Positions 4,958-56,584 are shown, counted from the first letter of the stretch. The stretch is 64,000 bases of DNA from Candidatus Microgenomates bacterium (GCA_016182045.1 JACOYE010000007.1:98121-162120), one strand, 5' to 3'. Notes: generated from the letters alone by a model not told the origin. A program made the numbers and translations.

Positions 4958-5620
4958 TTATTTATTCTTCCCAGGTTTAGGAGTGGGGGTAGGTTGGGCA
5001 AACCAATCTATTAAGCCGTTATAAAGAGACTGAGCAATTTCCTGTTGTCTCGTCCCTGTACTATTGCTTAAAAGGGTACATTCGGTCGTGTTTGAAATAA
5101 AAACTGTTTCTTGGATAGTTGCAGGCATATTTACTTTAAGTAATACTCCTGATGCAAAATTTGTTACTCCTAAATCAGATACTCCTAATTCAGTTGCCAA
5201 ACGAGCATGAATTCTTTCTGCAAATGCCTTATCCTTATTAAGTTTTCCATACAATCCTAAAGTTCCGTTCTTGGAATGATCTATGGAACCGTTAAGATGG
5301 ACTGAAACTAGAGCTTCACCACCAAAGTTGTTGGCAAAAGTATAACGGTCATTATTTGATTTGTAACTATCATCTGTTCTAGTCATACCCACAATTGCTC
5401 TATCAGTTTCTAAAAGAGTTTTTAATTTATTAGCAATCTGTAAGTTAGCATCTGCTTCGGTTAAAGTAGGACAAGCAGTTGAACCTAAATCTGTTCCACC
5501 ATGTCCGGGATCAATAACGATTTTATGGCCTGTAACCGGAGAAACAGCAAGTGTAGTTTGAGGAAGGAAAGCAAATAAAGCAAAAAGAAATAATACGAAA
5601 ATGCTTGTTCTTTTAAGCAT
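4958..5620 (-). CDS. N-acetylmuramoyl-L-alanine amidase (Amidase_3 family), secreted
   Basis: signal peptide then IVIDPGHGGTDLG motif typical of Amidase_3. Confidence 0.75.
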   Translation of the reverse strand: MLKRTSIFVLFLFALFAFLPQTTLAVSPVTGHKIVIDPGHGGTDLGSTACPTLTEADANLQIANKLKTLLETDRAIVGMTRTDDSYKSNNDRYTFANNFGGEALVSVHLNGSIDHSKNGTLGLYGKLNKDKAFAERIHARLATELGVSDLGVTNFASGVLLKVNMPATIQETVFISNTTECTLLSNSTGTRQQEIAQSLYNGLIDWFAQPTPTPKPGKNK

Positions 5621-5667
5621 AATTCTAGTCTATCACAAATTCTTTTGGTTAGATTAATAAATTCGAG

Positions 5668-5695
5668 CTCCGTATTCCTAGGATTAATTGAACTG
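5668..5695. repeat. CCTAGG-centred repeat, copy 2
   Basis: CTCCGTATTCCTAGGATTAATTGAACTG. Confidence 0.6.
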
Positions 5696-5706
5696 CCGTA
5701 GAAAAA

Positions 5707-20519: not shown

Positions 20520-21221
20520 CTATCTAGCCAGCGTGATGGCCCAGACTTTTTTGGCACCTGCTCTTTTTAAAATCCAGCAACATTCCCTGAGTGTTGAACC
20601 GGTGGTCCAGACATCATCTATAAGCAGGGTATAGGGTTTAGGGGATAGGGTATAGTCAGAAGAAATTTCAAAAGCACCAGAAATATTTTGTTTTCTTTGT
20701 TTACCTTTAAGTTTTGCTTGGGATCTGGTATAACGGATGCGTTTTAGTCCATCACAGTAACCTAAACCAAGCTTTTTGGATAATATTTGTCCAATTAAAG
20801 ATGACTGGTTAAATCCCCGAGAATTGGCTCTCCACCAATATAGCGGCACAGGAATGACTACCCATCCAACTCCTTGATCTTTTTTAATTTGATCTAAAAC
20901 AAAAGGCTGATATTTGGCCCAATATTCTATAGTAATATCCATCAAAATTTCCGCCAAATCTTTAATCCCTTTATATTTAAGTTGCTGAATGGCCGAGCGT
21001 AGTGAATCCTGGTATATTCCTAGACTCCATAATCCATCTAGTCCATATTTTCTGCGACAAACCGGATGAGTCTGCCCACCCACAGCCAATCTTTCACATC
21101 TGGGACAAACTAAATCAGTCTGCTTTATATCCCTTATACAATTCTGACAAAAATAGCTTCCCTCCTTACCACAACCAACGCATTTTTTGGGAAATAAAAT
21201 ATCTAGAATCCAGTTTGTCAT
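20520..21221 (-). CDS. comF: ComF family protein (phosphoribosyltransferase-like competence protein)
   Basis: N-terminal CxxC..CxxC zinc finger, C-terminal PRTase motif LLIDDVWTTGSTL. Confidence 0.8.
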   Translation of the reverse strand: MTNWILDILFPKKCVGCGKEGSYFCQNCIRDIKQTDLVCPRCERLAVGGQTHPVCRRKYGLDGLWSLGIYQDSLRSAIQQLKYKGIKDLAEILMDITIEYWAKYQPFVLDQIKKDQGVGWVVIPVPLYWWRANSRGFNQSSLIGQILSKKLGLGYCDGLKRIRYTRSQAKLKGKQRKQNISGAFEISSDYTLSPKPYTLLIDDVWTTGSTLRECCWILKRAGAKKVWAITLAR

Positions 21222-21285
21222 TGCGAGGAGCGAAACGACGTGGCAATCTCACTAGTGAGATCCTTCGCTACGCTCAGGATGACAG
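21217..21285. repeat. S-family repeat, full copy A, containing the perfect 16-bp palindrome ATCTCACTAGTGAGAT
   Basis: TTTGTCATTGCGAGG...ACGTGGCAATCTCACTAGTGAGATCC...CGCTCAGGATGACAG; termini TTTGTCAT / ATGACAG inverted. Confidence 0.55.
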
Positions 21286-40950: not shown

Positions 40951-42210
40951 CTATTTAAGCTTTGACTGTTCTAAAAGCGCATGAAATGGAAGAACATAAA
41001 TCTTAGTCTTATCTATTACTGCCTCTTGTTTATCGCCAAGATGAATAAGGTATGCTTTTTTTGGCTTATATTTTCTCAAAAAACTTCTGAAAGAGCGAGG
41101 CATTTCTAATTTTGACATCCTTTTATGTTTTGCTTCTAGCGGCACTGCCTCCAAACCTGTAACAAGAATAAAGTCAACCTCAGCCCTATCTCGTGTCCGC
41201 CAAAAATGAATTTGAGTCGGACTCATATCAAATTGCTCCCTAAGCATATTGAAAATGAGATTTTCAAATAAGTGCCCACTTAAAGGTTGCGGTATTCGTG
41301 GCAAACCAAACAGTCCCAGCAGAAAGTTACGAAGTCCAATATCATAAAAATAATATACCGGAGATTTACTAATCTCTTTTCTGACATTCCGGTAATACGG
41401 GCTCACCTTCTTAATTATGAATGTTTTCTCTAAATACCATAGGTAGTGTTGGACTGTTTTATCAGCGATCCCAATAGTTGAAGAAAGCTCGGTAGTATTG
41501 ACCAAGCTGCCGATTTGAGAGGCAATAACCTTAAGCAGGTTAGTAAAAGCTTCTTCTTTCTCAATATTGAGTAGTTTTTTAATATCCTGCTCGATATAGC
41601 TTTTATAGATTTCCTCCATTGCACTTTGTTTTTTCCATACAGTATCAGAGAGAATAACTTGAGGATAACCACCAAAAACCATATATTCCTCAAGAAACCG
41701 CTGCGTCTTGTCTTTCTCCAGGGCAAAAAACTCCCCTAATCTATCTTCATACCTATACTCTGTCCTAAAGTTAATAAATTCCTTTAAACTAATTGGATCA
41801 ATGCTAAACATCCTCTTGCGCCCGGCCATAGATTCGGAGATTTTAGCTTTTAACTCTAAGCTACCCGAACCTGAGATGATAAACTTATACGGTAAGTTCA
41901 TATCAGCAATACCTTTTAAGAAAAGTTCTGCGTTTTCTTTACGTTGAATCTCGTCAATAAACACATAGGCTTTCTCTTTACCAACTTGAAGTTCGATGTA
42001 TGAAATTAACTGACCTTGGGAATCAAAAAAGGGCCTGTGATCATCTATATCAAGGTTTAAAAAAAGAGTTTTCTCTCCTTTTGCCTTTAGTTTACCTTCC
42101 AAATACTTCATCAGGTAAGTTTTCCCTACCTGTCTGGGCCCAATGAGGATTGTCATTTCTTTTTCTGTAAGATGTCCTTCTAAAGCCTGGGTTATCGTTC
42201 TTTTGATCAT
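40951..42210 (-). CDS. AAA_14/DUF4143 ATPase (COG1373 family), paralog 3
   Basis: Walker A GPRQVGKTYLM, Walker B VFIDEIQ. Confidence 0.7.
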   Translation of the reverse strand: MIKRTITQALEGHLTEKEMTILIGPRQVGKTYLMKYLEGKLKAKGEKTLFLNLDIDDHRPFFDSQGQLISYIELQVGKEKAYVFIDEIQRKENAELFLKGIADMNLPYKFIISGSGSLELKAKISESMAGRKRMFSIDPISLKEFINFRTEYRYEDRLGEFFALEKDKTQRFLEEYMVFGGYPQVILSDTVWKKQSAMEEIYKSYIEQDIKKLLNIEKEEAFTNLLKVIASQIGSLVNTTELSSTIGIADKTVQHYLWYLEKTFIIKKVSPYYRNVRKEISKSPVYYFYDIGLRNFLLGLFGLPRIPQPLSGHLFENLIFNMLREQFDMSPTQIHFWRTRDRAEVDFILVTGLEAVPLEAKHKRMSKLEMPRSFRSFLRKYKPKKAYLIHLGDKQEAVIDKTKIYVLPFHALLEQSKLK

Positions 42211-42309
42211 ATACTACTATTTTAGTACCGAATTTCTAGAAGTCAAGTAGTAAAATTATCGGGTAAGAGTAGTTGGTTTGTATCCGGCATAGAATTTCCC
42301 AAACTTCTT

Positions 42310-42385
42310 TGTCAAATCCTGATCAGTTTACACTAAGCGATGCGTAAGTGCTTGATTTCATTCTGATGGAATCCTAACGAAATTA
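42310..42385. repeat. R-family element, copy R4
   Basis: TGTCAAATCCTGATCAGTTTACACTAAGCGATGCGTAAGTGCTTGATTTCATTCTGATGGAATCCTAACG. Confidence 0.6.
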
Positions 42386-42398
42386 CGGCTATATTGTA

Positions 42399-42872
42399 TT
42401 AAGTGAGATTTGCTGCCAAAGTAAATCCGAGTTTAGAATACCAATCATCCATAGAGAAAATAACATCAGTATTTAATTTTTTGGCAGTTGCTACAACCAG
42501 TGCATCAAAGACTGTTTTTTTCTTGCTACCTTTTGGGTCAAATACTTTTAAAGCCTCCTTAAGTAAATCTACATCTGTATTTTCTATTGATAACGACCCA
42601 TCTGTTATTCTCTCCACAATCTTAGCAGCAATATCTGACCTTTTAAGTTTTCGTATCAGTGTCGTGATAGTTTCCGTAATTGTGGTTAGGGGAAAAACTG
42701 TTTGAGCATCATGCTGTAATAGTTTGGCAACGGTTTCAACGGCTTTCTGATGACTTTTGTCTTCTTCGTGCAAAATAGCAATTAAAGCATCAGTGTCTCC
42801 TACCACAATCAGTTGTTTTTTAATCCCAGGTGTACTCATCATGTTTTTCAGATAAATCAGCTGGTAAACCAC
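42399..42872 (-). CDS. PIN-domain toxin (VapC-like)
   Basis: LIVVGDTDALIAIL ... conserved D/E positions; probable start at internal MMSTPG. Confidence 0.6.
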   Translation of the reverse strand: MVYQLIYLKNMMSTPGIKKQLIVVGDTDALIAILHEEDKSHQKAVETVAKLLQHDAQTVFPLTTITETITTLIRKLKRSDIAAKIVERITDGSLSIENTDVDLLKEALKVFDPKGSKKKTVFDALVVATAKKLNTDVIFSMDDWYSKLGFTLAANLT

Positions 42873-45962: not shown

Positions 45963-47009
45963 ATGGATGCACATCCTGTTCCTCAAAATGTCACCTCCTT
46001 CCAATTCAAATTGGTGGGGGATATGACTTTAAAACAATTTATTTATTTGGCTGCAGGGGTTGGTATTGCCTATTTTATCTTTGTCTTTCTGACAGCCGAC
46101 TACCCTGTGGTTGCCTGGCCCCTGATTGTCATCTCCACCATCCTGGGTGCAGCTTTTGCCTTTTTACCAATAGGGTCAAGGCCCCTGGATTACTGGCTGG
46201 GAGCATTTTTAAAAGCCATCTACTCCCCCACCAAAAGAGTCTGGCAAAAAAACAAGAAAAGTTACCTTCAGGATCCCCTTTTTAAAAGTAGATACGTGAT
46301 GTTTGCTTCCACTTTACATCCTCAACCGCCGATCGGTCCAATCCTCAGGCCGGTTGATCAAACCCAACCTGCCGGAACTTTACAGGTTAGCCTGGCGCTT
46401 TCACCACCTTCCCCCTCCAATCTGCCCACCCAAGAGGAACTTAAGAAAACAGTGGAGCTGGCTCGTCAGGCTCAAATATTACAAACCCAAATTATCCAGA
46501 CCGAAAGAGCTCTGGATCAAATTAGAGCAAAAGCCAATCAACCCATTGCTGCTCCCGCTGATTACACTGAGCAGGTCAACAAAATCATGACCGATTTACA
46601 AAGATTGATCAGTCAAACTTCTAATATTAAGAGCGAACTGGATGCTGTCAGTCATCCTGAGCAAACCGAACCTCAAGTTGTGGTACCTAAAGAAAAGTTA
46701 AGGGTGGTGATACCCAAAAAAACTCAACCTCAGGTAGCTTTAACCATCTTTCCCAATGTGATAAACGGTATTGTTAAAAATGTAGATGGGGATTATCTGG
46801 AAGGAGTAGTGGCAGTCATTTACGATAAAGAGGGCTTACCGGTCAGAGCTTTAAAAACTAACAAGCTGGGCCAATTTTCAGGCTCAACCCCTCTGCCCAA
46901 CGGTACATACACATTAGAGCTTGAGAAAGAAGACCTAAACTTTGATGCTTTACAAATAGAACTGGACGGTCAAATACTGCCACCGCTTATTATCACGGCT
47001 AAACAGTAA
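45963..47009 (+). CDS. T4SS-locus membrane protein: N-terminal two-TM region, Pro/Gln-rich coiled coil, C-terminal beta-sandwich-like domain
   Basis: TM helices at residues 27-46 and 50-70; C-terminal NGTYTLELEKED beta-sandwich-like segment. Confidence 0.35.
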   Translation: MDAHPVPQNVTSFQFKLVGDMTLKQFIYLAAGVGIAYFIFVFLTADYPVVAWPLIVISTILGAAFAFLPIGSRPLDYWLGAFLKAIYSPTKRVWQKNKKSYLQDPLFKSRYVMFASTLHPQPPIGPILRPVDQTQPAGTLQVSLALSPPSPSNLPTQEELKKTVELARQAQILQTQIIQTERALDQIRAKANQPIAAPADYTEQVNKIMTDLQRLISQTSNIKSELDAVSHPEQTEPQVVVPKEKLRVVIPKKTQPQVALTIFPNVINGIVKNVDGDYLEGVVAVIYDKEGLPVRALKTNKLGQFSGSTPLPNGTYTLELEKEDLNFDALQIELDGQILPPLIITAKQ

Positions 47010-47015
47010 AAATTT

Positions 47016-47765
47016 ATGAAAACAACTCAACAACATCTGGCTTTCGCCGATATCAAAGACGACCTGATTTTTCTAAAGGACGGAGGAGGGGCTTTGGTGT
47101 TACAAACTTCCGCAGTCAATTTTGGATTGTTATCGGCCCGCGAACAGGTGGCAATCATTGCTGCTTTTGCACAACTTCTAAACTCACTTTCTTTTAGCAT
47201 ACAAATTGTTGTCCACTCGGAAAGACTCAATATCTCCTCCTATCTTAATCTGTTGGACCAAGCTAAAAAGAGTCAAACCAATCCCCTTCTGTCCAAACTG
47301 ATGACTTCTTACCGCCAATTTATCCAAACCACCATTAAGGAAAACGAGGTTTTGGATAAAAAATTTTATATAGTCATTCCGCTTTTTAAGCTGGAGGTGG
47401 GACTTACTTCATCCAAAGAAGCACTGGATCAAAAAATTAAGACCGTACTTTTCCCCAGAAGAGATCAACTGATCCGCCAACTTAACAGAGTTGGCCTTAA
47501 GGCCACTCAACTGACTTCAACTAAACTGATCGATCTCTTTTATGATATCTACAACGGTGGGGAAGCAGAATTGTCACCACCTCAACCTTTAAGTGAAGCT
47601 GAACAGGTAAAACTTAATCAAGTCCAGCCAGTAATGGCACCTACAATTCAAAGCCAAAGCCCACTTCAGACCATCCCCCCTCAAGGACCAACCCCTTACC
47701 AACCATTGAGCAGTCAACCAACCAAAACCCATCCGTTTGTGGTGGAAGAATTGGAGGAAACTTAA
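47016..47765 (+). CDS. VirB4 extreme-N-terminal-like domain protein (separate ORF)
   Basis: HLAFADIKDDLIFLKDGGGALVLQTSAVNFGLLSAREQ...LNSLSFSIQIVVH resembles the first ~150 residues of VirB4/TrbE ATPases. Confidence 0.35.
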   Translation: MKTTQQHLAFADIKDDLIFLKDGGGALVLQTSAVNFGLLSAREQVAIIAAFAQLLNSLSFSIQIVVHSERLNISSYLNLLDQAKKSQTNPLLSKLMTSYRQFIQTTIKENEVLDKKFYIVIPLFKLEVGLTSSKEALDQKIKTVLFPRRDQLIRQLNRVGLKATQLTSTKLIDLFYDIYNGGEAELSPPQPLSEAEQVKLNQVQPVMAPTIQSQSPLQTIPPQGPTPYQPLSSQPTKTHPFVVEELEET

Positions 47766-47857
47766 ATTTTAAATTACAAATTTGAAATTTTAATTCAAAT
47801 TAAAATGTATTAATTTTTAATGTTTTAAACATTTAGTCATTTAAAATTGATTAAAAA

Positions 47858-49633
47858 TTGAAAATTATGAAGATACCAAAATTATTTAAAAAACCCAAAG
47901 CCCAAGAGGTTATTACTCCTCAATTAACCATTGAGGATGTCATTGCTCCTGCTGAGCTGGAGGTGGATTTTAATGAGTTGAAGATCAACAATTTTCATTT
48001 TAGGACTTATTTCGTGTCCAACTATCCCAGATTTATTGAACCTAATTGGCTGGAGCCTTTAATCTCTTTTGATCACTCTCTTTTGATTTCCATGTTTATT
48101 TATCCAACTCAACCGGCCGGTGTTTTGGATGAGTTAAAAAGAAAAATTGCCGAAATGGAAGCCACCATCCAAACCGACATAGAGAGGGGTAAGGCAGTTG
48201 ATCCGACAGTAGAGGTAGCATTGGAGGATGCCCGAACGCTTCAGGAACAACTGGTGAAAGGATCGGAAAGATTTTTCCAGTTTGCCTTGTACGTAACAGT
48301 CCCTGCTGCTACCAAAGAGGAGTTGCATAATACCTCCAAGCTGGTGGAGTCAACTTTGGCCTCTTTATCTATCACCTCCCAGCCGACCACCCTGCAGATG
48401 GAGGATGGTTTTAAATCAACCATCCCACAAGGGTTAGATCTTTTGAATCTGACTCACAATATGGATACCACCTCTTTGGCCACCACCTTCCCTTTTGCCT
48501 CATCGGAGTTGACTGCCAACGAAGGCATCATGTACGGCATTAACGAGCACAACGATTCCTTAATTTTGTTTGACAGATTCAGTTTGGAGAATGCCAATTC
48601 GGTTATCTTCGCCAAATCCGGGGCAGGCAAGAGCTATTTTGTCAAACTGGAAGCCTTAAGATCTTTAATGTTTGGAACAGAAATACTAATTATTGATCCT
48701 GAGCAGGAATATTTATCTTTATCTCAGGCAGTAGGTGGTGAGTATATTAATTTTTCTCCCTCTTCTGCTGTTAAAATCAATCCTTTTGATATGTCTTCTC
48801 AAGTATCGGAGGAAAATGAGTTAGGTAGAAAAATCCTCTCTTTGACAGCCTTTCTAAAAATTGTCCTGGGAAACTTATCTGCCCAGGAAGCAGCTATTTT
48901 GGACCGGGCCTTAAAGCAAACTTATTCGCTCAAAGGCATTACCGATGACCCCAAAACACAAAGCAATCCGCCAGCCGGCGGACCACCTTTGATGGAAGAT
49001 TTATACAAAGTGTTAATCGGCATGGAGGAACAACCCGCCCTGGAGCTGGCAGCCAGACTGGAAAGATTTATCAAAGGATCGCTGTCTGGTATTTTCTCTC
49101 AACAATCAAATGTGGACTTATCCAATTCCTTCACGGTTTTTTCTTTAAGAGATCTTCCGGATCAGCTAAGACCGCTGGCCATCCATATGATTTTAGATTA
49201 TGTCTGGACTAAGATCAGAAGCAAGTTAAAAAAAAGAATTATGGTGGTGGATGAGGCCTGGTATTTGATGAAAAATCCAGATTCTGCCGACTTTTTGGTG
49301 GACATGGCCAAAAGAGCTCGCAAATATTATTTGGGGCTGACCACCCTCACCCAAGACATCGAGGATTTTTTGGGGACCGAGAGAGGCAAGGAGATTATTT
49401 CCAACTCATCAATCCAAGTGCTACTTAAACAGGCTCCGGCCTCAATTGATCTGCTGGCTCAAATATTTAACTTATCAGAGGGGGAACAAAGACTTTTGCT
49501 ATCAGAAGGGATCGGTCAAGGGCTATTTTTTGCAGGCAATACTCATGTGGCTATGAGAGTGGTAGCCTCACCCCAGGAACATCAGTTGATCACCTCCAAT
49601 CCACAAGAAATATTGGCAAGACAAAATGTATAA
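47858..49633 (+). CDS. VirB4/TraC/TrbE-type T4SS ATPase
   Basis: Walker A AKSGAGKSY, IIDPEQEY, Walker B VVDEAW (DEAW hallmark), LTTLTQ motif. Confidence 0.8.
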   Translation: MKIMKIPKLFKKPKAQEVITPQLTIEDVIAPAELEVDFNELKINNFHFRTYFVSNYPRFIEPNWLEPLISFDHSLLISMFIYPTQPAGVLDELKRKIAEMEATIQTDIERGKAVDPTVEVALEDARTLQEQLVKGSERFFQFALYVTVPAATKEELHNTSKLVESTLASLSITSQPTTLQMEDGFKSTIPQGLDLLNLTHNMDTTSLATTFPFASSELTANEGIMYGINEHNDSLILFDRFSLENANSVIFAKSGAGKSYFVKLEALRSLMFGTEILIIDPEQEYLSLSQAVGGEYINFSPSSAVKINPFDMSSQVSEENELGRKILSLTAFLKIVLGNLSAQEAAILDRALKQTYSLKGITDDPKTQSNPPAGGPPLMEDLYKVLIGMEEQPALELAARLERFIKGSLSGIFSQQSNVDLSNSFTVFSLRDLPDQLRPLAIHMILDYVWTKIRSKLKKRIMVVDEAWYLMKNPDSADFLVDMAKRARKYYLGLTTLTQDIEDFLGTERGKEIISNSSIQVLLKQAPASIDLLAQIFNLSEGEQRLLLSEGIGQGLFFAGNTHVAMRVVASPQEHQLITSNPQEILARQNV

Positions 49634-49642
49634 TGGAACTGT

Positions 49643-51868
49643 ATGGCATTACGTGATGTCAAAAACTTTAGATTTTTATACAAGGCTTTAGAATATAAAT
49701 ACCTTCACCCACAAGCCAGTGGATATTTGGGGTTGGATTACGATCCTCACATTTATAAACTATTTTATGACACATTAACTTTTATCCAACAGACAGCGCA
49801 TGTGGATCTGAGAGATTATTTAAATATTAAAGATCCTAAAGTTTTAGAAAAATTTTATAAAGGTTTGGCCATAGATATAAGGTTAAGATTTTTAAGTAAA
49901 CCTGAAAGTGTGGCCACAGATGCTCGATATATTTTGACTGATGAGTATTATCAACAATATCCACAAGATTCAGAGGCAGAAAAAGAAGTTTTAGGGGCGC
50001 AAACATCCTCAACTGCATCTTCAGAATCTCAACAGCCAGGAATAGGATTCCCCTTTCCGGCAGGTTTAAGCGGACAGAGAATCCCCAGGAGAGTAGTTTA
50101 CATTGCACCCCAGACTAAAACTCCCCAAGCTAAATTATACGTGGCTGATAAAAGCGGCAGGGTGGTGGAAGAAAGAACCATCACTCCCACCTCAACAATT
50201 GTTAAGAAACCGGAAACACCATCAGTCTCAGAACACCCTCTGGGTGGAAAAACCATCAAAGCTGCTGAACAGCCAAAATTGGTGGTTGCAGAAGCACCTT
50301 CAAAGCAAATCTTTATTGCTGACAAAAGTGGGGCAATTAAAGGAATCCACAATATCAAATCTCCCAGCTGGTTAAAAACTTTCGGCTCAAATACCCAGAT
50401 ATTTACCAAAAAAGCTGTTAATCGTCTGGCTTCGGGCTTGACTAATTTCTTAAAGGGAGCGGGAGGAGCAGGGGGAGGTCTTTTGGGAGGTCTTGCTGGG
50501 ACAGGAGGCAGATTTTTAGGTGGCGCAGGAATTGGTGGTCTTAACTCCCTGGTATCTTTTTCTAATCAAATATCCAGAGGAAGTATTATTAAAGGCCCTC
50601 CAGGAAAATTCTGGCTGATTCTTTTGGGAGTGTTTCTTTTGGTAGGCACTATTGCCGCCATATCCCCTACCGGGCAACCAACTCCCACCGCTCAAGCAGG
50701 ACCAGTTGGACCTATAAATCTGTTAAGTTGTCAGCTTACCAGATCTGACCAAACACCGATACAAGGCTCTATTAAAAGCTCTATTCTGGTTAGATTATTC
50801 CAGGAAGCCGAACTTACCACTACAGTACCCGCAGCAGTTTTGGCAGGGATTGCCAGATTGGAAAACCCTAATTTTGTGATAAATGCCGATGATAATCATG
50901 ATGCCTTTTATGATAGAAATTTTACTGATCTGACAACTTGTACTCCTCATTTTGGCATGAGTCCCACCGGAGCATTGGGTCTAATGCAACTCCAACCGCC
51001 TGGCACAACAGGTTCATTTCCCTCAGGACTAGAACAGGGAGCTAAATTTTTAAATAAGACCTTGCAAGAGGTAAATTATTGTAATGTTAGAGAAAATATA
51101 TTCCTGGCTGCCGGATTTATTTTAAAAAAGCTACAAGGTTATAATATCGGGGATGGAACCAGGTGGGATCCTGCCTGGACAAATGACCAGAATGTTATCT
51201 ACAAGGTAGCGGAAAGTTTTTATGGCTGTCTACCCTATGGAGGTTCAAACCCTACCAAATGTGAGGGACCTTACAGTTATGGCCAGGATCTTTGGGCCAG
51301 TATCCAATCCTGTCAATCTATAGCATCACAACCTCTGGGCTGTCCAGCCATAGGAACTATCACTGGCCCTTACGGGTATAATATCCCTGATTATAATTAT
51401 CAGAACGAAGGATGTACCCCTCTTCAAAACTGCCATAACGGCATTGACATAGGTGCTTCTTTAGGTGATACGCTAGTATCAACCATTGAGGGAATAGTCA
51501 CAGAAATAGGTGACAATCATCCTCAAAGAGGTGATTATATCCAAATCTCAAATCAATCATCTGCGCTTGTCATAACCTATGAGCATATGTTAGATATCAG
51601 TGTACAAAAGGGAGAACAAATACAAAGGGGTCAAAAAGTAGGAACGGTTGGGGAGGGCGGTGAGGGTGTCAGTGGTCCTCATCTACATTATAAAATCCAA
51701 AAAAACGGAAACCTCCTTAATCCTTTTAAATATCTGGGTGATTCTTCTCCTCCTCTCCCATCACATACTCTGGCTTCATCTGATAATCTGGCAGATAACG
51801 ATTATGCTAATGTTCCCATTACTCCTGAAATAAGGGATAACTGGGGGCAGTGTAATAAATCACCATGA
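49643..51868 (+). CDS. bifunctional cell-wall hydrolase: lytic transglycosylase (SLT-like) + M23 metallopeptidase, membrane-anchored (VirB1/CwlT/TcpG analogue)
   Basis: TM at ~aa 325; GALGLMQLQP (SLT); HNGIDIG ... GPHLHY (M23 HxxxD / HxH). Confidence 0.7.
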   Translation: MALRDVKNFRFLYKALEYKYLHPQASGYLGLDYDPHIYKLFYDTLTFIQQTAHVDLRDYLNIKDPKVLEKFYKGLAIDIRLRFLSKPESVATDARYILTDEYYQQYPQDSEAEKEVLGAQTSSTASSESQQPGIGFPFPAGLSGQRIPRRVVYIAPQTKTPQAKLYVADKSGRVVEERTITPTSTIVKKPETPSVSEHPLGGKTIKAAEQPKLVVAEAPSKQIFIADKSGAIKGIHNIKSPSWLKTFGSNTQIFTKKAVNRLASGLTNFLKGAGGAGGGLLGGLAGTGGRFLGGAGIGGLNSLVSFSNQISRGSIIKGPPGKFWLILLGVFLLVGTIAAISPTGQPTPTAQAGPVGPINLLSCQLTRSDQTPIQGSIKSSILVRLFQEAELTTTVPAAVLAGIARLENPNFVINADDNHDAFYDRNFTDLTTCTPHFGMSPTGALGLMQLQPPGTTGSFPSGLEQGAKFLNKTLQEVNYCNVRENIFLAAGFILKKLQGYNIGDGTRWDPAWTNDQNVIYKVAESFYGCLPYGGSNPTKCEGPYSYGQDLWASIQSCQSIASQPLGCPAIGTITGPYGYNIPDYNYQNEGCTPLQNCHNGIDIGASLGDTLVSTIEGIVTEIGDNHPQRGDYIQISNQSSALVITYEHMLDISVQKGEQIQRGQKVGTVGEGGEGVSGPHLHYKIQKNGNLLNPFKYLGDSSPPLPSHTLASSDNLADNDYANVPITPEIRDNWGQCNKSP

Positions 51869-52324: not shown

Positions 52325-53440
52325 TTATATCTTCACCGGCATGACGATAAATTCCAACCCCTCCACTCCCACCGGCTTAATCAAACAAGGCGATAAAGAC
52401 CCGGAAAATTCCATCATTAGCTGTGAAGAGGGGGCATTGCTGATGGCATCTAATAAAAATTTGGAGTTAAAGGCAATCTGCATTTGATCCCCCTCTATCT
52501 GAGCATCGACCTGATTTTGTTGGCTGCCCAACTCTTTGGCTGAAGATTCCAGACTGATCTGGTTATTTTGAGCGGTCAAAGTGGTAATATTGGTTTCGTT
52601 TTTGGCAAAAACTAAAGCCAGTTTGATGGCTTTCAACAGCTCCTCCCGATCTAGCAGCGCTCTAGTTTTAATCTCGGTGGGAATAATTTTTTCCCAGGAA
52701 GGAAACTGACCCTCAATCAACCTTGAGGAAATAATAGTTTGGCCAATGGTAAAGATGGCCTGATTTTGGTTTGGCGATAGAGAAATATTAACTTCACCAG
52801 CATTCTCTTCCCCAATAACTCTTAACACTTCCTCAAAAGTTCTTTTGGGTATTAGGCTTTTAAACCCTTCTGCTCCTCCGCCTTTGGCGTTGCTTGGTAC
52901 CAATTGTACTTGCCTGTGAGCCAGCCTAAAACCGTCTGTGGCCACAAAATCCAATTTTCCGTCTTTAACGTCAGTCAGAATTCCAGTCAAAACAGGTCTG
53001 CCTTCATCAACCGCAGCAGCATAAAGAATTTGAGCTGATGTTAAAAAAACCTCCTTGGGGAAGGTGACCCCCTTACCTTCCGATAGAGGGATAACAGGAA
53101 ATTCCGAGGCCAAGATGCCATTAATTTGAGCCTTTAGTTTGCCGGATTGAATAGATAGGATTTCTCCTGTTGCTTCCAGCTCGATTTTGCTTTGACCCAA
53201 ACCCGAGACCAGATCAACCAAAGTTTTGGCAGGAATTGTCAGCTCACCTGATGAAACTCCTTCTACCGAGACAAATTTGATCACCCCCACTTCCAAATTG
53301 GTGGCGGCAATTTTTAATTTATTACCTTCCAGGGACAATAAAATGTTATCTAAAACCGGTAAGGTAGATCGAACCCCAACAGATCTGCTAACTGATTGTA
53401 AAACAGGAAGTAAGTCTTGCTGTAATACGGAAAACTTCAT
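52325..53440 (-). CDS. dnaN: DNA polymerase III beta sliding clamp DnaN
   Basis: full-length three-domain clamp, MKFSVLQQDLL...PVLDNILL. Confidence 0.9.
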   Translation of the reverse strand: MKFSVLQQDLLPVLQSVSRSVGVRSTLPVLDNILLSLEGNKLKIAATNLEVGVIKFVSVEGVSSGELTIPAKTLVDLVSGLGQSKIELEATGEILSIQSGKLKAQINGILASEFPVIPLSEGKGVTFPKEVFLTSAQILYAAAVDEGRPVLTGILTDVKDGKLDFVATDGFRLAHRQVQLVPSNAKGGGAEGFKSLIPKRTFEEVLRVIGEENAGEVNISLSPNQNQAIFTIGQTIISSRLIEGQFPSWEKIIPTEIKTRALLDREELLKAIKLALVFAKNETNITTLTAQNNQISLESSAKELGSQQNQVDAQIEGDQMQIAFNSKFLLDAISNAPSSQLMMEFSGSLSPCLIKPVGVEGLEFIVMPVKI

Positions 53441-53442
53441 CT

Positions 53443-53895
53443 TTAATCTCCTTTCCGAGAAGTGACAAACTTTTGTATTTCTTCCTCAGTCACCTTAATC
53501 AATCTGAAATTTACTCTTCCGGCAGCAATTAGGTTTTTAATGTGTTTTTCCTCATCTGTCAATAGGTTGTTTAAACCGCTTTTGACTTCAATAAAATCAA
53601 TTCTTTGGTTATTTTTAATACCAATAAAATCAATCGGCCAACCTAAAGGGATAATCCGGTCATAATCATATCTCAGCTCGGCATAAGTTAAAAGCTCGGC
53701 CATTCTGCCTTTTTGGGGATTAATGGAACCTTGGATAACCTGTAACACTTTGGTGGGTAGTTCTTGTAAACCTTTATATAAATCAATCAAATCCGTGGGA
53801 ATATCTTGTGGTTTTCTCCCATGTAATCTGCCAATTAAATAAGCAACTACCAAAAATAGAATTAATATTCCGATTACCCACCAATTAGTATTCAT
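53443..53895 (-). CDS. membrane-anchored PD-(D/E)xK-like nuclease-fold protein (hypothetical)
   Basis: N-terminal TM; D...IDFIEVK motif; located between dnaA and dnaN. Confidence 0.35.
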   Translation of the reverse strand: MNTNWWVIGILILFLVVAYLIGRLHGRKPQDIPTDLIDLYKGLQELPTKVLQVIQGSINPQKGRMAELLTYAELRYDYDRIIPLGWPIDFIGIKNNQRIDFIEVKSGLNNLLTDEEKHIKNLIAAGRVNFRLIKVTEEEIQKFVTSRKGD

Positions 53896-54075
53896 AAACT
53901 TATCAACAAACTGTTCGATTATACATTAATTTTAAATATATTAGTAATATTAATATACTAGGTGGATATGTTGATAAACTTCACCTATAAATTCAATTTT
54001 CGATTTAATTTCGTGTTAAAGCAGTGTTAATTTTTAGTGGATAAGATGTGGAAAAGTGACAATTCCGGTGGATAA
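53896..54075. promoter_or_regulatory. putative oriC: AT-rich unwinding element plus >=4 DnaA-box-like 9-mers (GTGGATAAG, TGTGGAAAA, GGTGGATAA, GGTGGATAT)
   Basis: seen directly at 53961, 54037-54045, 54047-54055, 54066-54076. Confidence 0.5.
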
Positions 54076-55392
54076 TTAAGCAGCCAACCTGCCTCTTATT
54101 TCTGATAACATTCTTTGTATCTCCCGGTCAGTGCTTACTAAATTCTTAATTTTATCTCTGCCGTGCATAACTGTGGTGTGATCTCTTTTACCTAAAATTT
54201 GTCCAATTTTTTCCACAGTTATATTAAGGTGTTCACTTAGAATAAACATGGCCATATGCCTGGGGAAAACCAGCTCTTTTTGTCTTTTTGCTCCAATTAG
54301 ATCTTTTTGAGTTAAGTTAAAATAATCACAAACTGCCTCCAGCACCTGCTTTGGTTCAATTTTTAATCCCTGCCGGGTAGGTATTTTAAGGTGTTGACTA
54401 ATATTTGCTGTGGTGGGAAGTAAATTTTGAGCTTTCAAAAGCTGCAGGATTCCCATCAACCTTCCCTCAAGCTCTCTGATATTGGTTTCAAAAGATGAGG
54501 CCAACATCTGCAAAGCCGCCTCCTCTAAAACTACCCGTTGCTCTTCGCACTTGGCTCTTAAGATGGCCATCCTGGTGTCGAAATCAGGGGCTTGGATGTC
54601 AATCATTAAGCCGCCGGCAAAGCGCGATTTTAACCTGTCCTCCAGTTTGGCAATTTCATGAGGGGATCTGTCTGAAGTAATCACAATCTGGGAATTCTTA
54701 CCAAGCAGCTCATTAAAAGTATGGAAAAACTCCTCTTGGGTTCCCTCCCTGCCTGAAAAAAACTGGATATCATCTATTAGTAAAACTTGGGGGGAGCGGT
54801 ATTTGGTTCTTAAATCTCCCATCCGGTTAGTTTTGATGGCCTCAACATAATCATTCAAAAACTTCTCAGATGGGCTATAAATGATTTTAGTTTGTGGTTT
54901 TTTATTTAAGATGGCATTGCCGATGCCTATCATCAGATGGGTTTTGCCCACCCCTGTTCCTCCGTAGATAAATAGAGGGTTATATGAGATACCTGGGTTT
55001 TGGGTCACTGATTGGGCTGCGGCATAAGCCACATTATTGGTTGGTCCCACCACAAAATTTGCTAAAGTATATTTGGGGTTAAGATACGATGTTTGAGTTT
55101 GAAAAGGTTGAAAAAATTCTTCATCTTTTTCCTGTGTTTCAATGTCATTTTCTTTGATAACAAATAAAACATTAATCTTTTTTTCCAGGATCTTAGTTAA
55201 AACTTCCTCGATTAAAGATTTGTATTTTTTATTTAAAGTTTCTTTGATAAAAGCTGAAGAAGTGCTCAAAGTCACATTTTCACCGTCAATAGACTTCAAA
55301 AGGGTTTTTAAAAAGTAAGCCTTAAGGTTATCAGGTCCTACCGCTGGTTTAATCAGTTGTAATAATTTGTGCCAAACTCTCAAGTTGTCCAT
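54076..55392 (-). CDS. dnaA: chromosomal replication initiator DnaA
   Basis: Walker A GGTGVGKTHLM, LLIDDIQF, C-terminal DNA-binding domain DHTTVMHGRDKI. Confidence 0.9.
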   Translation of the reverse strand: MDNLRVWHKLLQLIKPAVGPDNLKAYFLKTLLKSIDGENVTLSTSSAFIKETLNKKYKSLIEEVLTKILEKKINVLFVIKENDIETQEKDEEFFQPFQTQTSYLNPKYTLANFVVGPTNNVAYAAAQSVTQNPGISYNPLFIYGGTGVGKTHLMIGIGNAILNKKPQTKIIYSPSEKFLNDYVEAIKTNRMGDLRTKYRSPQVLLIDDIQFFSGREGTQEEFFHTFNELLGKNSQIVITSDRSPHEIAKLEDRLKSRFAGGLMIDIQAPDFDTRMAILRAKCEEQRVVLEEAALQMLASSFETNIRELEGRLMGILQLLKAQNLLPTTANISQHLKIPTRQGLKIEPKQVLEAVCDYFNLTQKDLIGAKRQKELVFPRHMAMFILSEHLNITVEKIGQILGKRDHTTVMHGRDKIKNLVSTDREIQRMLSEIRGRLAA

Positions 55393-55413
55393 GGTTAGAT
55401 TAAGCTATTCACA

Positions 55414-55444
55414 AGTGTGGAAAACTTTCTTGATTTTATCCACA
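55414..55444. promoter_or_regulatory. DnaA boxes upstream of dnaA (TGTGGAAAA at 55414-55422; perfect TTATCCACA at 55436-55444)
   Basis: seen directly. Confidence 0.6.
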
Positions 55445-55477
55445 ATTTAATCCAGCAGGGGATTCTTTAGCAAGATG

Positions 55478-55521
55478 GAGGAACTATTAAAAACTAGATC
55501 AAAATTTTTGTCGTTGCAAGG
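55478..55521. repeat. 45-bp direct repeat DR-left (GGAACTATTAAAAACTAGATCAAAATTTTTGTCGTTGCAAGG)
   Basis: near-identical copy at 56032-56076. Confidence 0.65.
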
Positions 55522-55562
55522 ATTCCCTTTACATATTGCAGCTGGTGGTGTAATATAAAAAT

Positions 55563-55754
55563 ATGAACAAGATTAAAAATCCGATGGTGAATTATGAGAA
55601 TAAATGGGTTGCCTTATCTTCGGACAAAAAAAAGGTTGTAGCAGCTGGGAGTTCAATCAAGCAATTAGAGAAAAAGCTCAAAGGATTCAAGAAAGAAGAA
55701 GTAATACTTACTTTTGTTCCCCCTTTTGATAAAGTGCTATCGCTTCAATGTTAA
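55563..55754 (+). CDS. small protein, DUF5678-like (hypothetical)
   Basis: NKWVALSSDKKKVVAAGSSIKQLEKKL...EEVILTFVP. Confidence 0.35.
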   Translation: MNKIKNPMVNYENKWVALSSDKKKVVAAGSSIKQLEKKLKGFKKEEVILTFVPPFDKVLSLQC

Positions 55755-56014
55755 ATAGTAAGGTTTTAACTTACGATTATTTAAGGTTTCTTGAGAAGGA
55801 TGAGAAAACTCAGGAATTTACCAGAGAAATATTTGCACCGTTTATCTCCGTAAGAATTTCCTTTGACCATAAGCTAAGTTTCCCTTTTCATGCACTCGTT
55901 GATTCCGGCGCCGCAAGAAATTTACTGCCTGCGGCTTTAGGGGAACAAATCCAAAGAGTTATTTTTGATGAAAACTTCCACCAAGTGCAACTAATTCTTA
56001 AAAGTGAAAGCTAA
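55748..56014 (+). CDS. retropepsin-like aspartic peptidase fragment (clan AA, DSGA motif)
   Basis: HALVDSGAARNLLP = D-S-G-A active-site signature; 88 aa, short for a full domain. Confidence 0.45.
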   Translation: MLNSKVLTYDYLRFLEKDEKTQEFTREIFAPFISVRISFDHKLSFPFHALVDSGAARNLLPAALGEQIQRVIFDENFHQVQLILKSES

Positions 56015-56031
56015 TTAAAGCTAATTAAGGA

Positions 56032-56076
56032 ACTGTTAAAAACTAGATCAAGTTTTTTTGTCATTGCGAGGTATTG
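56032..56076. repeat. 45-bp direct repeat DR-right (GGAACTGTTAAAAACTAGATCAAGTTTTTTTGTCATTGCGAGG)
   Basis: pairs with 55478-55521; also contains the S-family core TTTGTCATTGCGAGG. Confidence 0.65.
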
Positions 56077-56108
56077 TATCGATGAGTTAAATTTAGTAAA
56101 CTACCCTC

Positions 56109-56246
56109 ATGCCAAAGAGAACTTATCAGCCCAAGAAATTAAAAAGAGTCAGAAAGCATGGTTTTAGAAAAAGGATGGCTACTCATGATGGAGCTAAGGT
56201 ATTAAAAAGAAGAAGGATCAGGGGTAGAAAAAGGTTGACGGTATAA
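56109..56246 (+). CDS. rpmH: 50S ribosomal protein L34
   Basis: hand-translated [45 protein letters not shown]; not in ORF track (45 aa). Confidence 0.9.
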
Positions 56247-56584
56247 TGCTATCCAAAGAAAAACGACTTAATCTTAAAATAGACTTTAAATGGGTGGCTT
56301 CTGGTAGAAAACTGGAAACTAAATACTTAAAACTTTTTGTAAAGTCTGGGGATAATAGAACACCTCGGGTTGGTATAGCTTTGGGGAGTAAATCATTTAA
56401 AAAGGCCACCCAAAGAAATAGGGCCAAAAGAGTAGCTTCAGCTGCTTTCGGGATGCTCTATAAAAAGCTCCCGCCTAATGCTAATATAATAGCTCTTCCC
56501 AAAACTGGTGTACTTGAGGTAAAATCATCTGATGTGCTATTGGATTTGGAGAAGACATTAAAGCATGAAAAATTTATTGATTAA
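56246..56584 (+). CDS. rnpA: RNase P protein component RnpA
   Basis: 112 aa basic protein directly after rpmH (TAATG overlap); RnpA-like KRLNLKIDFK...RNRAKR. Confidence 0.85.
   Translation: MLSKEKRLNLKIDFKWVASGRKLETKYLKLFVKSGDNRTPRVGIALGSKSFKKATQRNRAKRVASAAFGMLYKKLPPNANIIALPKTGVLEVKSSDVLLDLEKTLKHEKFID

Follow-up and report, generated by a model that had tools for sequence, protein, structure and literature searches.

Why two small genes bracketed by a direct repeat should lie between dnaA and rpmH is the question raised by a 64-kb stretch of DNA from an uncultured Candidatus Microgenomates bacterium of the Candidate Phyla Radiation (CPR). This whole stretch is called the window here, and coordinates are counted along it. 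A preliminary description of the locus took the two open reading frames (ORFs), one of 63 amino acids resembling DUF5678 and one of 88 amino acids with a retropepsin-type DSGA motif, for a small mobile and possibly addiction-like module. We compared the locus with others retrieved from related or more distant genomes, which carry labels of the form L081. The reading that we favor, with an overall confidence of about 0.6 that averages its parts, is that the window carries one copy, now in decay, of a two-gene module that moves horizontally between genomes, has toxin-antitoxin (TA)-like cargo, and was integrated by recombination into a locus-specific cassette hotspot. We are highly confident of the structural and evolutionary side of this account; a TA-like function of the pair is proposed tentatively, as is recombination at the rpmH promoter segment as the mechanism of insertion, both at somewhat less than even odds.

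The genes on either side of the module were confirmed by Pfam as dnaA and rpmH, in agreement with the preliminary description. Scans of metagenome and viral collections with a degenerate version of the repeat motif returned mostly chance matches in AT-rich DNA; 11 metagenome loci were real dnaA-rpmH sites, with DnaA proteins 62 to 72% identical to that of the window (45% over the short partial DnaA of L205), and the viral contigs held no convincing copy. In a genome scan based on DnaA, matches to a universally conserved DnaA peptide drowned out the rest; the genomes retrieved were all of about 40% identity, with no close relatives among them. In L164, L165, L151, and L205, the dnaA-rpmH interval is free of genes and contains exactly one copy of the motif. 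These four empty sites bear out the claim of an insertion, for which a single repeat copy in relatives had been suggested as the sign to look for. Inserted genes flanked by two or three motif copies are present in the window and in L081, L087, L088, L090, L241, L138, L096, and L179.

The repeats had been described as two 45-bp copies about 90% identical to each other. They are real and slightly longer (Table 1), with 85% identity over 48 aligned columns and two one-base indels. The window contains their 24-nt core, AGGAACTRTTAAAAACTAGATCAA, at exactly two places, and none of 100 shuffles yielded a match even with three mismatches allowed, so that a search for further copies, as had been proposed, added none. 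With two copies only in 64 kb, a general dispersed repeat was excluded. A motif of about 21 nt, AACTATTAAAAACTAGATCAA, is kept at the position of the left copy in all related dnaA-rpmH loci. Since all exact matches to its 21-nt core in the scan lay at dnaA-rpmH loci, the motif is a feature of this locus and not a dispersed repeat.

Comparison with the empty sites indicates what the repeat derives from. In two of them, L164 and L205, 7 nt separate the motif from an extended -10 element (TGnTATACT) downstream of it, which is itself 6 to 9 nt from the rpmH start codon; the motif therefore spans about -40 to -20 of the rpmH promoter. On the opposite strand, its position would be that of an UP element serving the putative dnaA promoter. 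In L241, the right copy is followed by the rpmH extended -10 (TGATATACT) and the rpmH ATG; the succession of right copy, GTTGTGATATACTTCC, and ATG mirrors the empty site of L164. The left copy of L241 is followed by a degenerate version of the -10 stretch (GTTTCTGTGATGTTCC) and then by the module's own promoter. From this layout it follows that the duplicated unit measures about 37 nt and reaches from the motif to about the rpmH start. The repeat of 46 to 48 nt in the window consists of this unit plus an insertion of about 9 nt (C[G/A]TTGC[A/G]AG), a fragment of a GC-rich element that is found in fuller form beside the motif in L092 and L096 and also elsewhere in the window. The repeat unit is thus a duplicated segment of the native rpmH promoter and not the end of a mobile element; relatives with an empty site have it in single copy. 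The repeats do flank a mobile module as claimed, but they belong to the site and are absent around the gene pair elsewhere. The objection foreseen in the preliminary description, an ordinary promoter duplication present in all relatives, holds for the promoter origin but not for the relatives, some of which have one copy. Identity between repeat copies is 0.78 within genomes versus 0.73 to 0.76 between genomes, which is uninformative on concerted evolution.

Some further observations concern the repeat region. The GC-rich element (TTGTCATTGCGAGGAGCGAAACGACGTGGCAATCTC...GATCCTTCGCTACGCTCAGGATGAC) occupies an intergenic position at 21215-21285; its first 14 nt recur in both repeat copies (55508-55521 and 56058-56071), and in L092 and L096 at least its first ~35 nt adjoin the motif. 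It has the appearance of a small dispersed repeat of these genomes. Directly before the right copy, a 10-nt tandem duplication (two units of AAGCTAATTA, 56008-56027, plus strand) extends across the stop codon of the 88-aa ORF; L241 and L081 lack it. The motif was also considered as an intrinsic terminator or attC-like hairpin, which was excluded because no significant folding and no terminator-like site were found, and as DnaA-trio or DNA unwinding element (DUE) repeats, which were excluded because trinucleotide periodicity is missing from the motif and the main cluster of DnaA boxes is located on the far side of dnaA.

Several different cargos occupy this one site. Loci L241 to L246 and L248 carry the intact DUF5678-protease pair directly between dnaA and rpmH, with the repeat both before DUF5678 and after the protease gene. 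In L081, the order is dnaA, DUF5678, a 148-aa protease gene, an ABC exporter, and rpmH, and a 25-nt version of the repeat precedes DUF5678 and follows the protease gene, as it also does in L087, L088, and L090. Two genes of unknown function precede the pair in L087, with what reads by eye as a third, degenerate motif copy between them. A type II TA pair occupies the same site in L138, where DUF433 and DUF5615 (PIN-like) genes (Pfam E 2e-21 and 1e-17) lie in inverted orientation between motif copies (5105-5696 of that locus), and L096 (3944-4180) has the DUF433 antitoxin gene alone, likewise inverted, with the GC-rich element in the toxin's place. A small membrane protein is encoded between motif copies in L179 and, in L132, after the single motif copy detected. 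In L092, one detected motif copy is followed by a 364-aa gene and then, directly upstream of rpmH, by a 118-aa Asp_protease_2 gene (2156-2512; E 5.5e-7, above the gathering score) that is distinct from the module protease and is a second retropepsin-like cargo at the hotspot. In some genomes, additional genes of unknown function separate rpmH from the motif copy nearest to it.

The claim that the module is mobile is supported by its synonymous sites, which are nearly unchanged while those of core genes are saturated. Between the window and L241, identity at four-fold degenerate sites is 92% for DUF5678 and 82% for the protease gene, compared with 27 to 47% for dnaN, dnaA, the Endonuc_Holl-family gene next to dnaA, rpmH, rnpA, and yidC. 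For L247, the corresponding values are 100% for DUF5678 (99.5% over all nucleotides) and 49% for dnaA. Even in L081, the most distant of the three genomes in this comparison, the two module genes reach 64 to 70%, against 34 to 45% for dnaN, dnaA, the Endonuc_Holl-family gene, rpmH, and rnpA. The high-identity tract shared with L241 runs from about 55471, just before the left copy, as far as the stop codon of the protease gene (56014), where it ends 14 nt ahead of the right copy. In a rough DnaA tree, module carriers are interspersed among genomes with empty sites or other cargos. The module has thus moved horizontally between genomes whose core genes are saturated, and vertical inheritance cannot explain the contrast in identity and the shared tract.

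The 88-aa ORF carries HALVDSGAARNLLP, with the DSGA motif in the context ALVDSGAARN. Its homologues are 147 to 148 aa long, and the window ORF lacks exactly 60 internal residues (69 to 128) with the frame kept. The underlying in-frame 180-nt deletion, with its junction at about 55948-55952, has removed a conserved GIG stretch, presumed to be the flap, and the invariant motif LLGRDG, both of which are present in full-length homologues; DSGA has stayed. The preliminary description was right about the motif, but the gene that carries it is a deletion remnant. The window ORF itself scored below threshold against the Pfam aspartyl-protease families PF13650 and PF13975 (13.5 and 13.1 bits, with cutoffs of 28.2 and 24.3; E 0.11 and 0.16), whereas 12 of 13 homologues matched them (best E 4.4e-6). 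Residues D52, S53, and G54 are invariant in all 15 aligned sequences. When a profile of 15 full-length members was compared with the PDB, all nine matches were retropepsin domains (best E 0.0075), namely DDI1-type domains and the protease of equine infectious anemia virus (EIAV) only, and the alignment covered DSGA and GIG. We conclude that the 88-aa ORF is the remnant of a 148-aa gene for a retropepsin-like (clan AA) aspartic protease, and that it is probably nonfunctional because of the 60 deleted residues. The AlphaFold2 (AF2) model of the remnant is poor, with a predicted local distance difference test (pLDDT) score of 66.6 and a DSGA loop below 50, and a Foldseek search of the PDB with this poor model gave no retropepsin match.

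Among defense-system models, the full-length homologue P0002 gave weak, partial matches to PADLOC PDC-M52B (E 3.8e-5) and PDC-M08B (E 4.5e-5). A tblastn search of plasmids with the protease found no match, and a search of PHROGs gave no meaningful match. In the literature, nothing relevant was found on a retropepsin with an antitoxin or on PDC-M08 and PDC-M52. Few bacterial retropepsin-like enzymes are characterized, namely RimB and RloA (PMC11957791, PMC12239564).

The 63-aa ORF matches DUF5678 (PF18929) over residues 11 to 54 with 34.2 bits (gathering score 23.2; E 2.2e-8), which substantiates the earlier assignment. The gene is intact, overlaps the 88-aa ORF by 7 nt (ATGTTAA), and encodes a protein 100% identical to its counterparts in L241 and L247. 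Its ATG follows the -10 hexamer of the module promoter by 6 nt, and the mRNA of the module is possibly leaderless. The corresponding distance for rpmH is 6 to 9 nt in empty-site relatives; such short spacing suggests leaderless mRNAs for both. An AF2 model (pLDDT 86) predicts a beta-beta-alpha-beta fold with a disordered but conserved VPPFD tail. A sequence search of the PDB and a comparison with PADLOC models gave no match for DUF5678. Profile searches found at least 456 relatives, and the named ones are mostly from Microgenomates lineages. A literature search on DUF5678 returned nothing relevant, the sole paper containing the term being an unrelated plant study.

The pairing is conserved beyond this site. 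Every dnaA-rpmH locus that carries the pair has a protease homologue after DUF5678, and the same order was found in all five of the more distant loci examined, which lie at unrelated sites. There, the protease homologues of L249, L252, and L253 are full length (hmmsearch E 1e-39 to 1e-46) and those of L256 and L240 are fragments; the neighbors are unrelated and comprise MFS and an RpoA-CTD protein, a Carb_kinase-family gene and Fic, FtsW, and rplU. No direct repeats flank the pair in the four such loci scanned (L249, L252, L253, and L256), which ties the repeat to the dnaA-rpmH site rather than to the module. Damage to the protease gene beside an intact DUF5678 gene was seen in the window (deletion), L247 (truncation), L256 (N-terminal half missing), and L088 (early stop). 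In a pair of toxin and antidote the toxin would be expected to decay first, and the loss of the protease before DUF5678 fits this order. In L253 (3501-4096), the pair lies immediately upstream of rplU-rpmA, encoding ribosomal proteins L21 and L27; adjacency to ribosomal genes there and in the window may be a coincidence or a preference for strong promoters.

How such a locus could work may be pictured as follows. Cassettes sit at about the rpmH transcription start, with a promoter segment of about 25 to 46 bp repeated on both sides, and the rpmH-adjacent copy would keep rpmH expressed. Circular or incoming DNA with one copy of the segment could recombine with the resident copy in a Campbell-type event, catalyzed either by a recombinase supplied in trans or by RecA acting on short homology, and recombination between the two copies could excise the cassette again. 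The protease, translationally coupled to DUF5678, would be the effector and DUF5678 its partner or inhibitor, making the pair a TA-like or defense-like selfish module. The "addiction-like" role ascribed to the pair in the preliminary description would fit its gene organization, its mobility, the presence of a bona fide TA pair at the same site, and the loss of the protease first.

Some observations weigh against this proposal. The length of the duplicated stretch differs among genomes (about 25 to 46 nt), which suits homology-driven recombination as well as or better than a defined site-specific crossover. No recombinase domain was detected in the ten cassette proteins scanned, and a crude motif scan of the window ORFs revealed no tyrosine-recombinase signature. 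Single-strand folding of both window copies is insignificant (z, +0.4 and -0.2), the right copy holds only a weak 7-6-7 dyad (AAAAACT-AGATCA-AGTTTTT), and the motif bears no mark of a classical recombinase core site. As to function, fold prediction for the protease covered the 88-aa remnant, which modeled poorly, the DUF5678 model matched no PDB structure (best E 0.77) and no known antitoxin or DNA-binding fold, and the loci were retrieved through DUF5678, which biases the count of intact antitoxins beside decayed proteases.

The mechanistic points among these favor exchange of the cassettes purely by RecA-dependent homologous recombination after DNA uptake, without a dedicated recombinase or att site. 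Here the block of DnaA boxes and motif on one side and the motif with the rpmH 5' end on the other would serve as anchors, for which these flanks are conserved enough, and the duplication would have arisen once or a few times and been passed on with the cassettes; the limits of the tract shared with L241 agree with it as well. On the other hand, unrelated cargos are each bracketed by the same segment, which would require repeated duplications or a systematic mechanism, and 25 to 40 nt of homology at 75 to 90% identity is marginal for RecA. This route, which competes with our proposal for the mechanism only, is plausible, although we lean against it. At the opposite extreme, the motif would be the att site of a dedicated recombination system that, like an integron lacking an adjacent integrase, captures and swaps promoter-restoring microcassettes at this origin-proximal locus across Microgenomates, with the pair as a new family of protease-based TA or abortive-infection systems in which DUF5678 adopts a novel fold and offers its VPPFD tail, conserved but disordered, as a substrate or pseudosubstrate to the protease; taken as a whole, this combination is unlikely. 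Adjacency to strongly expressed ribosomal-protein genes (rpmH here, rplU-rpmA in L253) might instead point to a cellular processing system, in which the protease and a chaperone or specificity factor act on ribosomal or other proteins, and RimB, a characterized bacterial retropepsin-like enzyme, acts on ribosomal protein S6 (RpsF), whose polyglutamate tail it trims (PMC11957791). Such a housekeeping role is hard to reconcile with a horizontally transferred pair that is missing from many close relatives, is also found beside unrelated genes (Fic, MFS, RpoA-CTD protein), and has its protease repeatedly inactivated without loss of the lineage, and we consider it improbable. That the repeats are an ordinary local promoter duplication around two vertically inherited accessory genes would agree with their derivation from the resident rpmH promoter rather than from the module, and with the position of all placeable in-clade pair loci in the dnaA-rpmH region (L090, whose flanks are uninformative, being left out). 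It is largely refuted by the four-fold identities of 82 to 100% in the module against 27 to 50% in the flanks, and the patchy distribution on the DnaA tree, the other cargos between repeats, and the single-copy empty sites make it very unlikely. A metagenome-assembled genome (MAG) could also contain a chimeric join or a collapsed repeat, or be wrongly binned; the locus sequence is 100% identical in five independent assemblies, one per sequencing run (L082 to L086), arrangements homologous to it were recovered from many other samples and projects, and an artifact is therefore next to inconceivable.

The favored reading, a mobile module in a locus-specific hotspot, has parallels among known systems. 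Islands at tRNA genes, which bear a copy of the tRNA 3' end that they disrupt, and integrase-less cis-mobilizable elements (CIMEs) have att direct repeats on both sides, by which the interrupted target is made whole, and CIMEs accrete in tandem. The locus described here resembles them in that its direct repeats are a duplicated piece of the target, whose target-adjacent copy would restore the rpmH promoter, and in its single-copy empty sites in relatives, varied cargos, and three-copy array (L087); the small element also encodes no integrase. It differs in that the target is the dnaA-rpmH promoter instead of a tRNA gene or the 3' end of a protein gene, and in that the elements are tiny (0.3 to 2 kb) and have repeats of variable length. 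Integron cassettes likewise gather at a fixed chromosomal site beside a promoter, as small varied units separated by a repeat. Unlike in integrons, no IntI was seen, the repeat does not fold as attC does, and the cassettes bring their own promoters in either orientation (inverted in L138 and L096 relative to the window); the locus thus does not qualify as an integron. Elements using Xer/dif (integrative mobile elements exploiting Xer [IMEX] and pdif modules) depend on a 28-bp site of 11-6-11 structure; the weak 7-6-7 dyad of the right copy does not, by eye, resemble dif consensus sequences, and the motif lies at the origin and not at the terminus.

With regard to the cargo, type II TA systems share with the pair a small upstream gene that overlaps a larger downstream gene, a promoter directly upstream, pairing that is kept across contexts, horizontal transfer, and a putative toxin often inactivated with its partner intact. 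Retropepsin-like aspartic proteases, to which the putative toxin belongs, are however not an established class of toxins, and DUF5678 has no recognized antitoxin or DNA-binding fold. The protease shares a single clan AA domain with a D-S/T-G-A catalytic motif with RimB, RloA, and the eukaryotic DDI1 domain; unlike RimB and RloA, it has no signal peptide, is paired with DUF5678, and is mobile. The B components of the PADLOC candidates PDC-M08 and PDC-M52, which the protease family matches weakly, are small retropepsin-like parts of multigene, uncharacterized systems.

The position of the module relative to the replication origin follows from the minimum of the cumulative GC skew at about 54 to 56 kb and from the DnaA boxes, which put the probable origin no more than a few hundred bases away from it. 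Of these boxes, five (at most one mismatch) are grouped in the 180-nt gap directly downstream of dnaA (53896-54075), probably the main oriC. The module is on the promoter side of dnaA and outside this cluster. Two more DnaA boxes, conserved in relatives, lie just upstream of dnaA, and the dnaA promoter would be on the bottom strand, abutting one of them; a TTG-containing hexamer is kept at this position in the relatives compared. Downstream of rpmH, the genes rnpA, yidD, yidC, and jag follow in this order. A Candidatus Microgenomates MAG encodes a protein identical to the 88-aa one under the name "hypothetical protein HYT18_01385." An Rfam search of 53800-56300 gave zero matches.

Table 1. Positions of genes and sequence elements around the dnaA-rpmH interval of the window
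Feature	Position	Strand	Basis or remark
dnaN	52325-53440	minus	
150-aa Endonuc_Holl-family gene	53443-53895	minus	
dnaA, left border of cassette hotspot	54076-55392	minus	Pfam
DnaA box, TTTTCCACA	55416-55424	minus	Conserved in relatives
DnaA box, perfect, TTATCCACA	55436-55444		Conserved in relatives
Inferred dnaA promoter	55445-55473	minus	-35 TTGCTA (55468-55473), 17-nt spacer, -10 TTAAAT (55445-55450)
Left (dnaA-proximal) repeat copy	55479-55524	plus	Conserved motif AACTATTAAAAACTAGATCAA and about 24 nt
Promoter-like site of module	55528-55556	plus	TTTACA, 17-nt spacer, TAATAT; conserved in L241, L247, L081
63-aa DUF5678 ORF	55563-55754	plus	Pfam PF18929
88-aa protease-remnant ORF	55748-56014	plus	Alignment with full-length homologues
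Right (rpmH-proximal) repeat copy	56028-56075	plus	
rpmH (ribosomal protein L34), gene with duplicated promoter region	56109-56246	plus	Pfam PF00468, E 1e-20

Other genes of the window were noted in passing. The 150-aa gene between dnaA and dnaN belongs to PF10107, the family of an [quoted passage not shown]; it is an unusual occupant of this interval, and its position is conserved in L081 and L241 to L245. A cluster resembling type IV secretion or conjugation systems (45963-51868) lies immediately upstream of dnaN and comprises a PrgI-family protein, a VirB4/TraG-type P-loop ATPase (591 aa), and an M23 peptidase (741 aa). L243 keeps at least the dnaN-proximal part (ATPase, M23 peptidase, and a Big_5 gene) of this cluster. 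The cluster may have a bearing on how these organisms exchange DNA. A PIN-domain protein (157 aa; 42399-42872, minus strand) is encoded about 190 nt from an AAA_14/DUF4143 ATPase (419 aa; 40951-42210, minus strand), and the two (40951-42872) may form another TA or defense-type locus.

CPR bacteria have tiny genomes with few recognizable mobile elements. The copy of the module in the window is degenerate, and its own biological impact is probably small. The hotspot and the DUF5678-retropepsin pair, for which we found no relevant published description, are worth follow-up. If the pair is a TA or defense system, it would add aspartic proteases to the effectors of such systems as a new class. If confirmed, the origin-adjacent hotspot would provide a concrete handle on gene exchange in CPR bacteria across species whose core genes are saturated.

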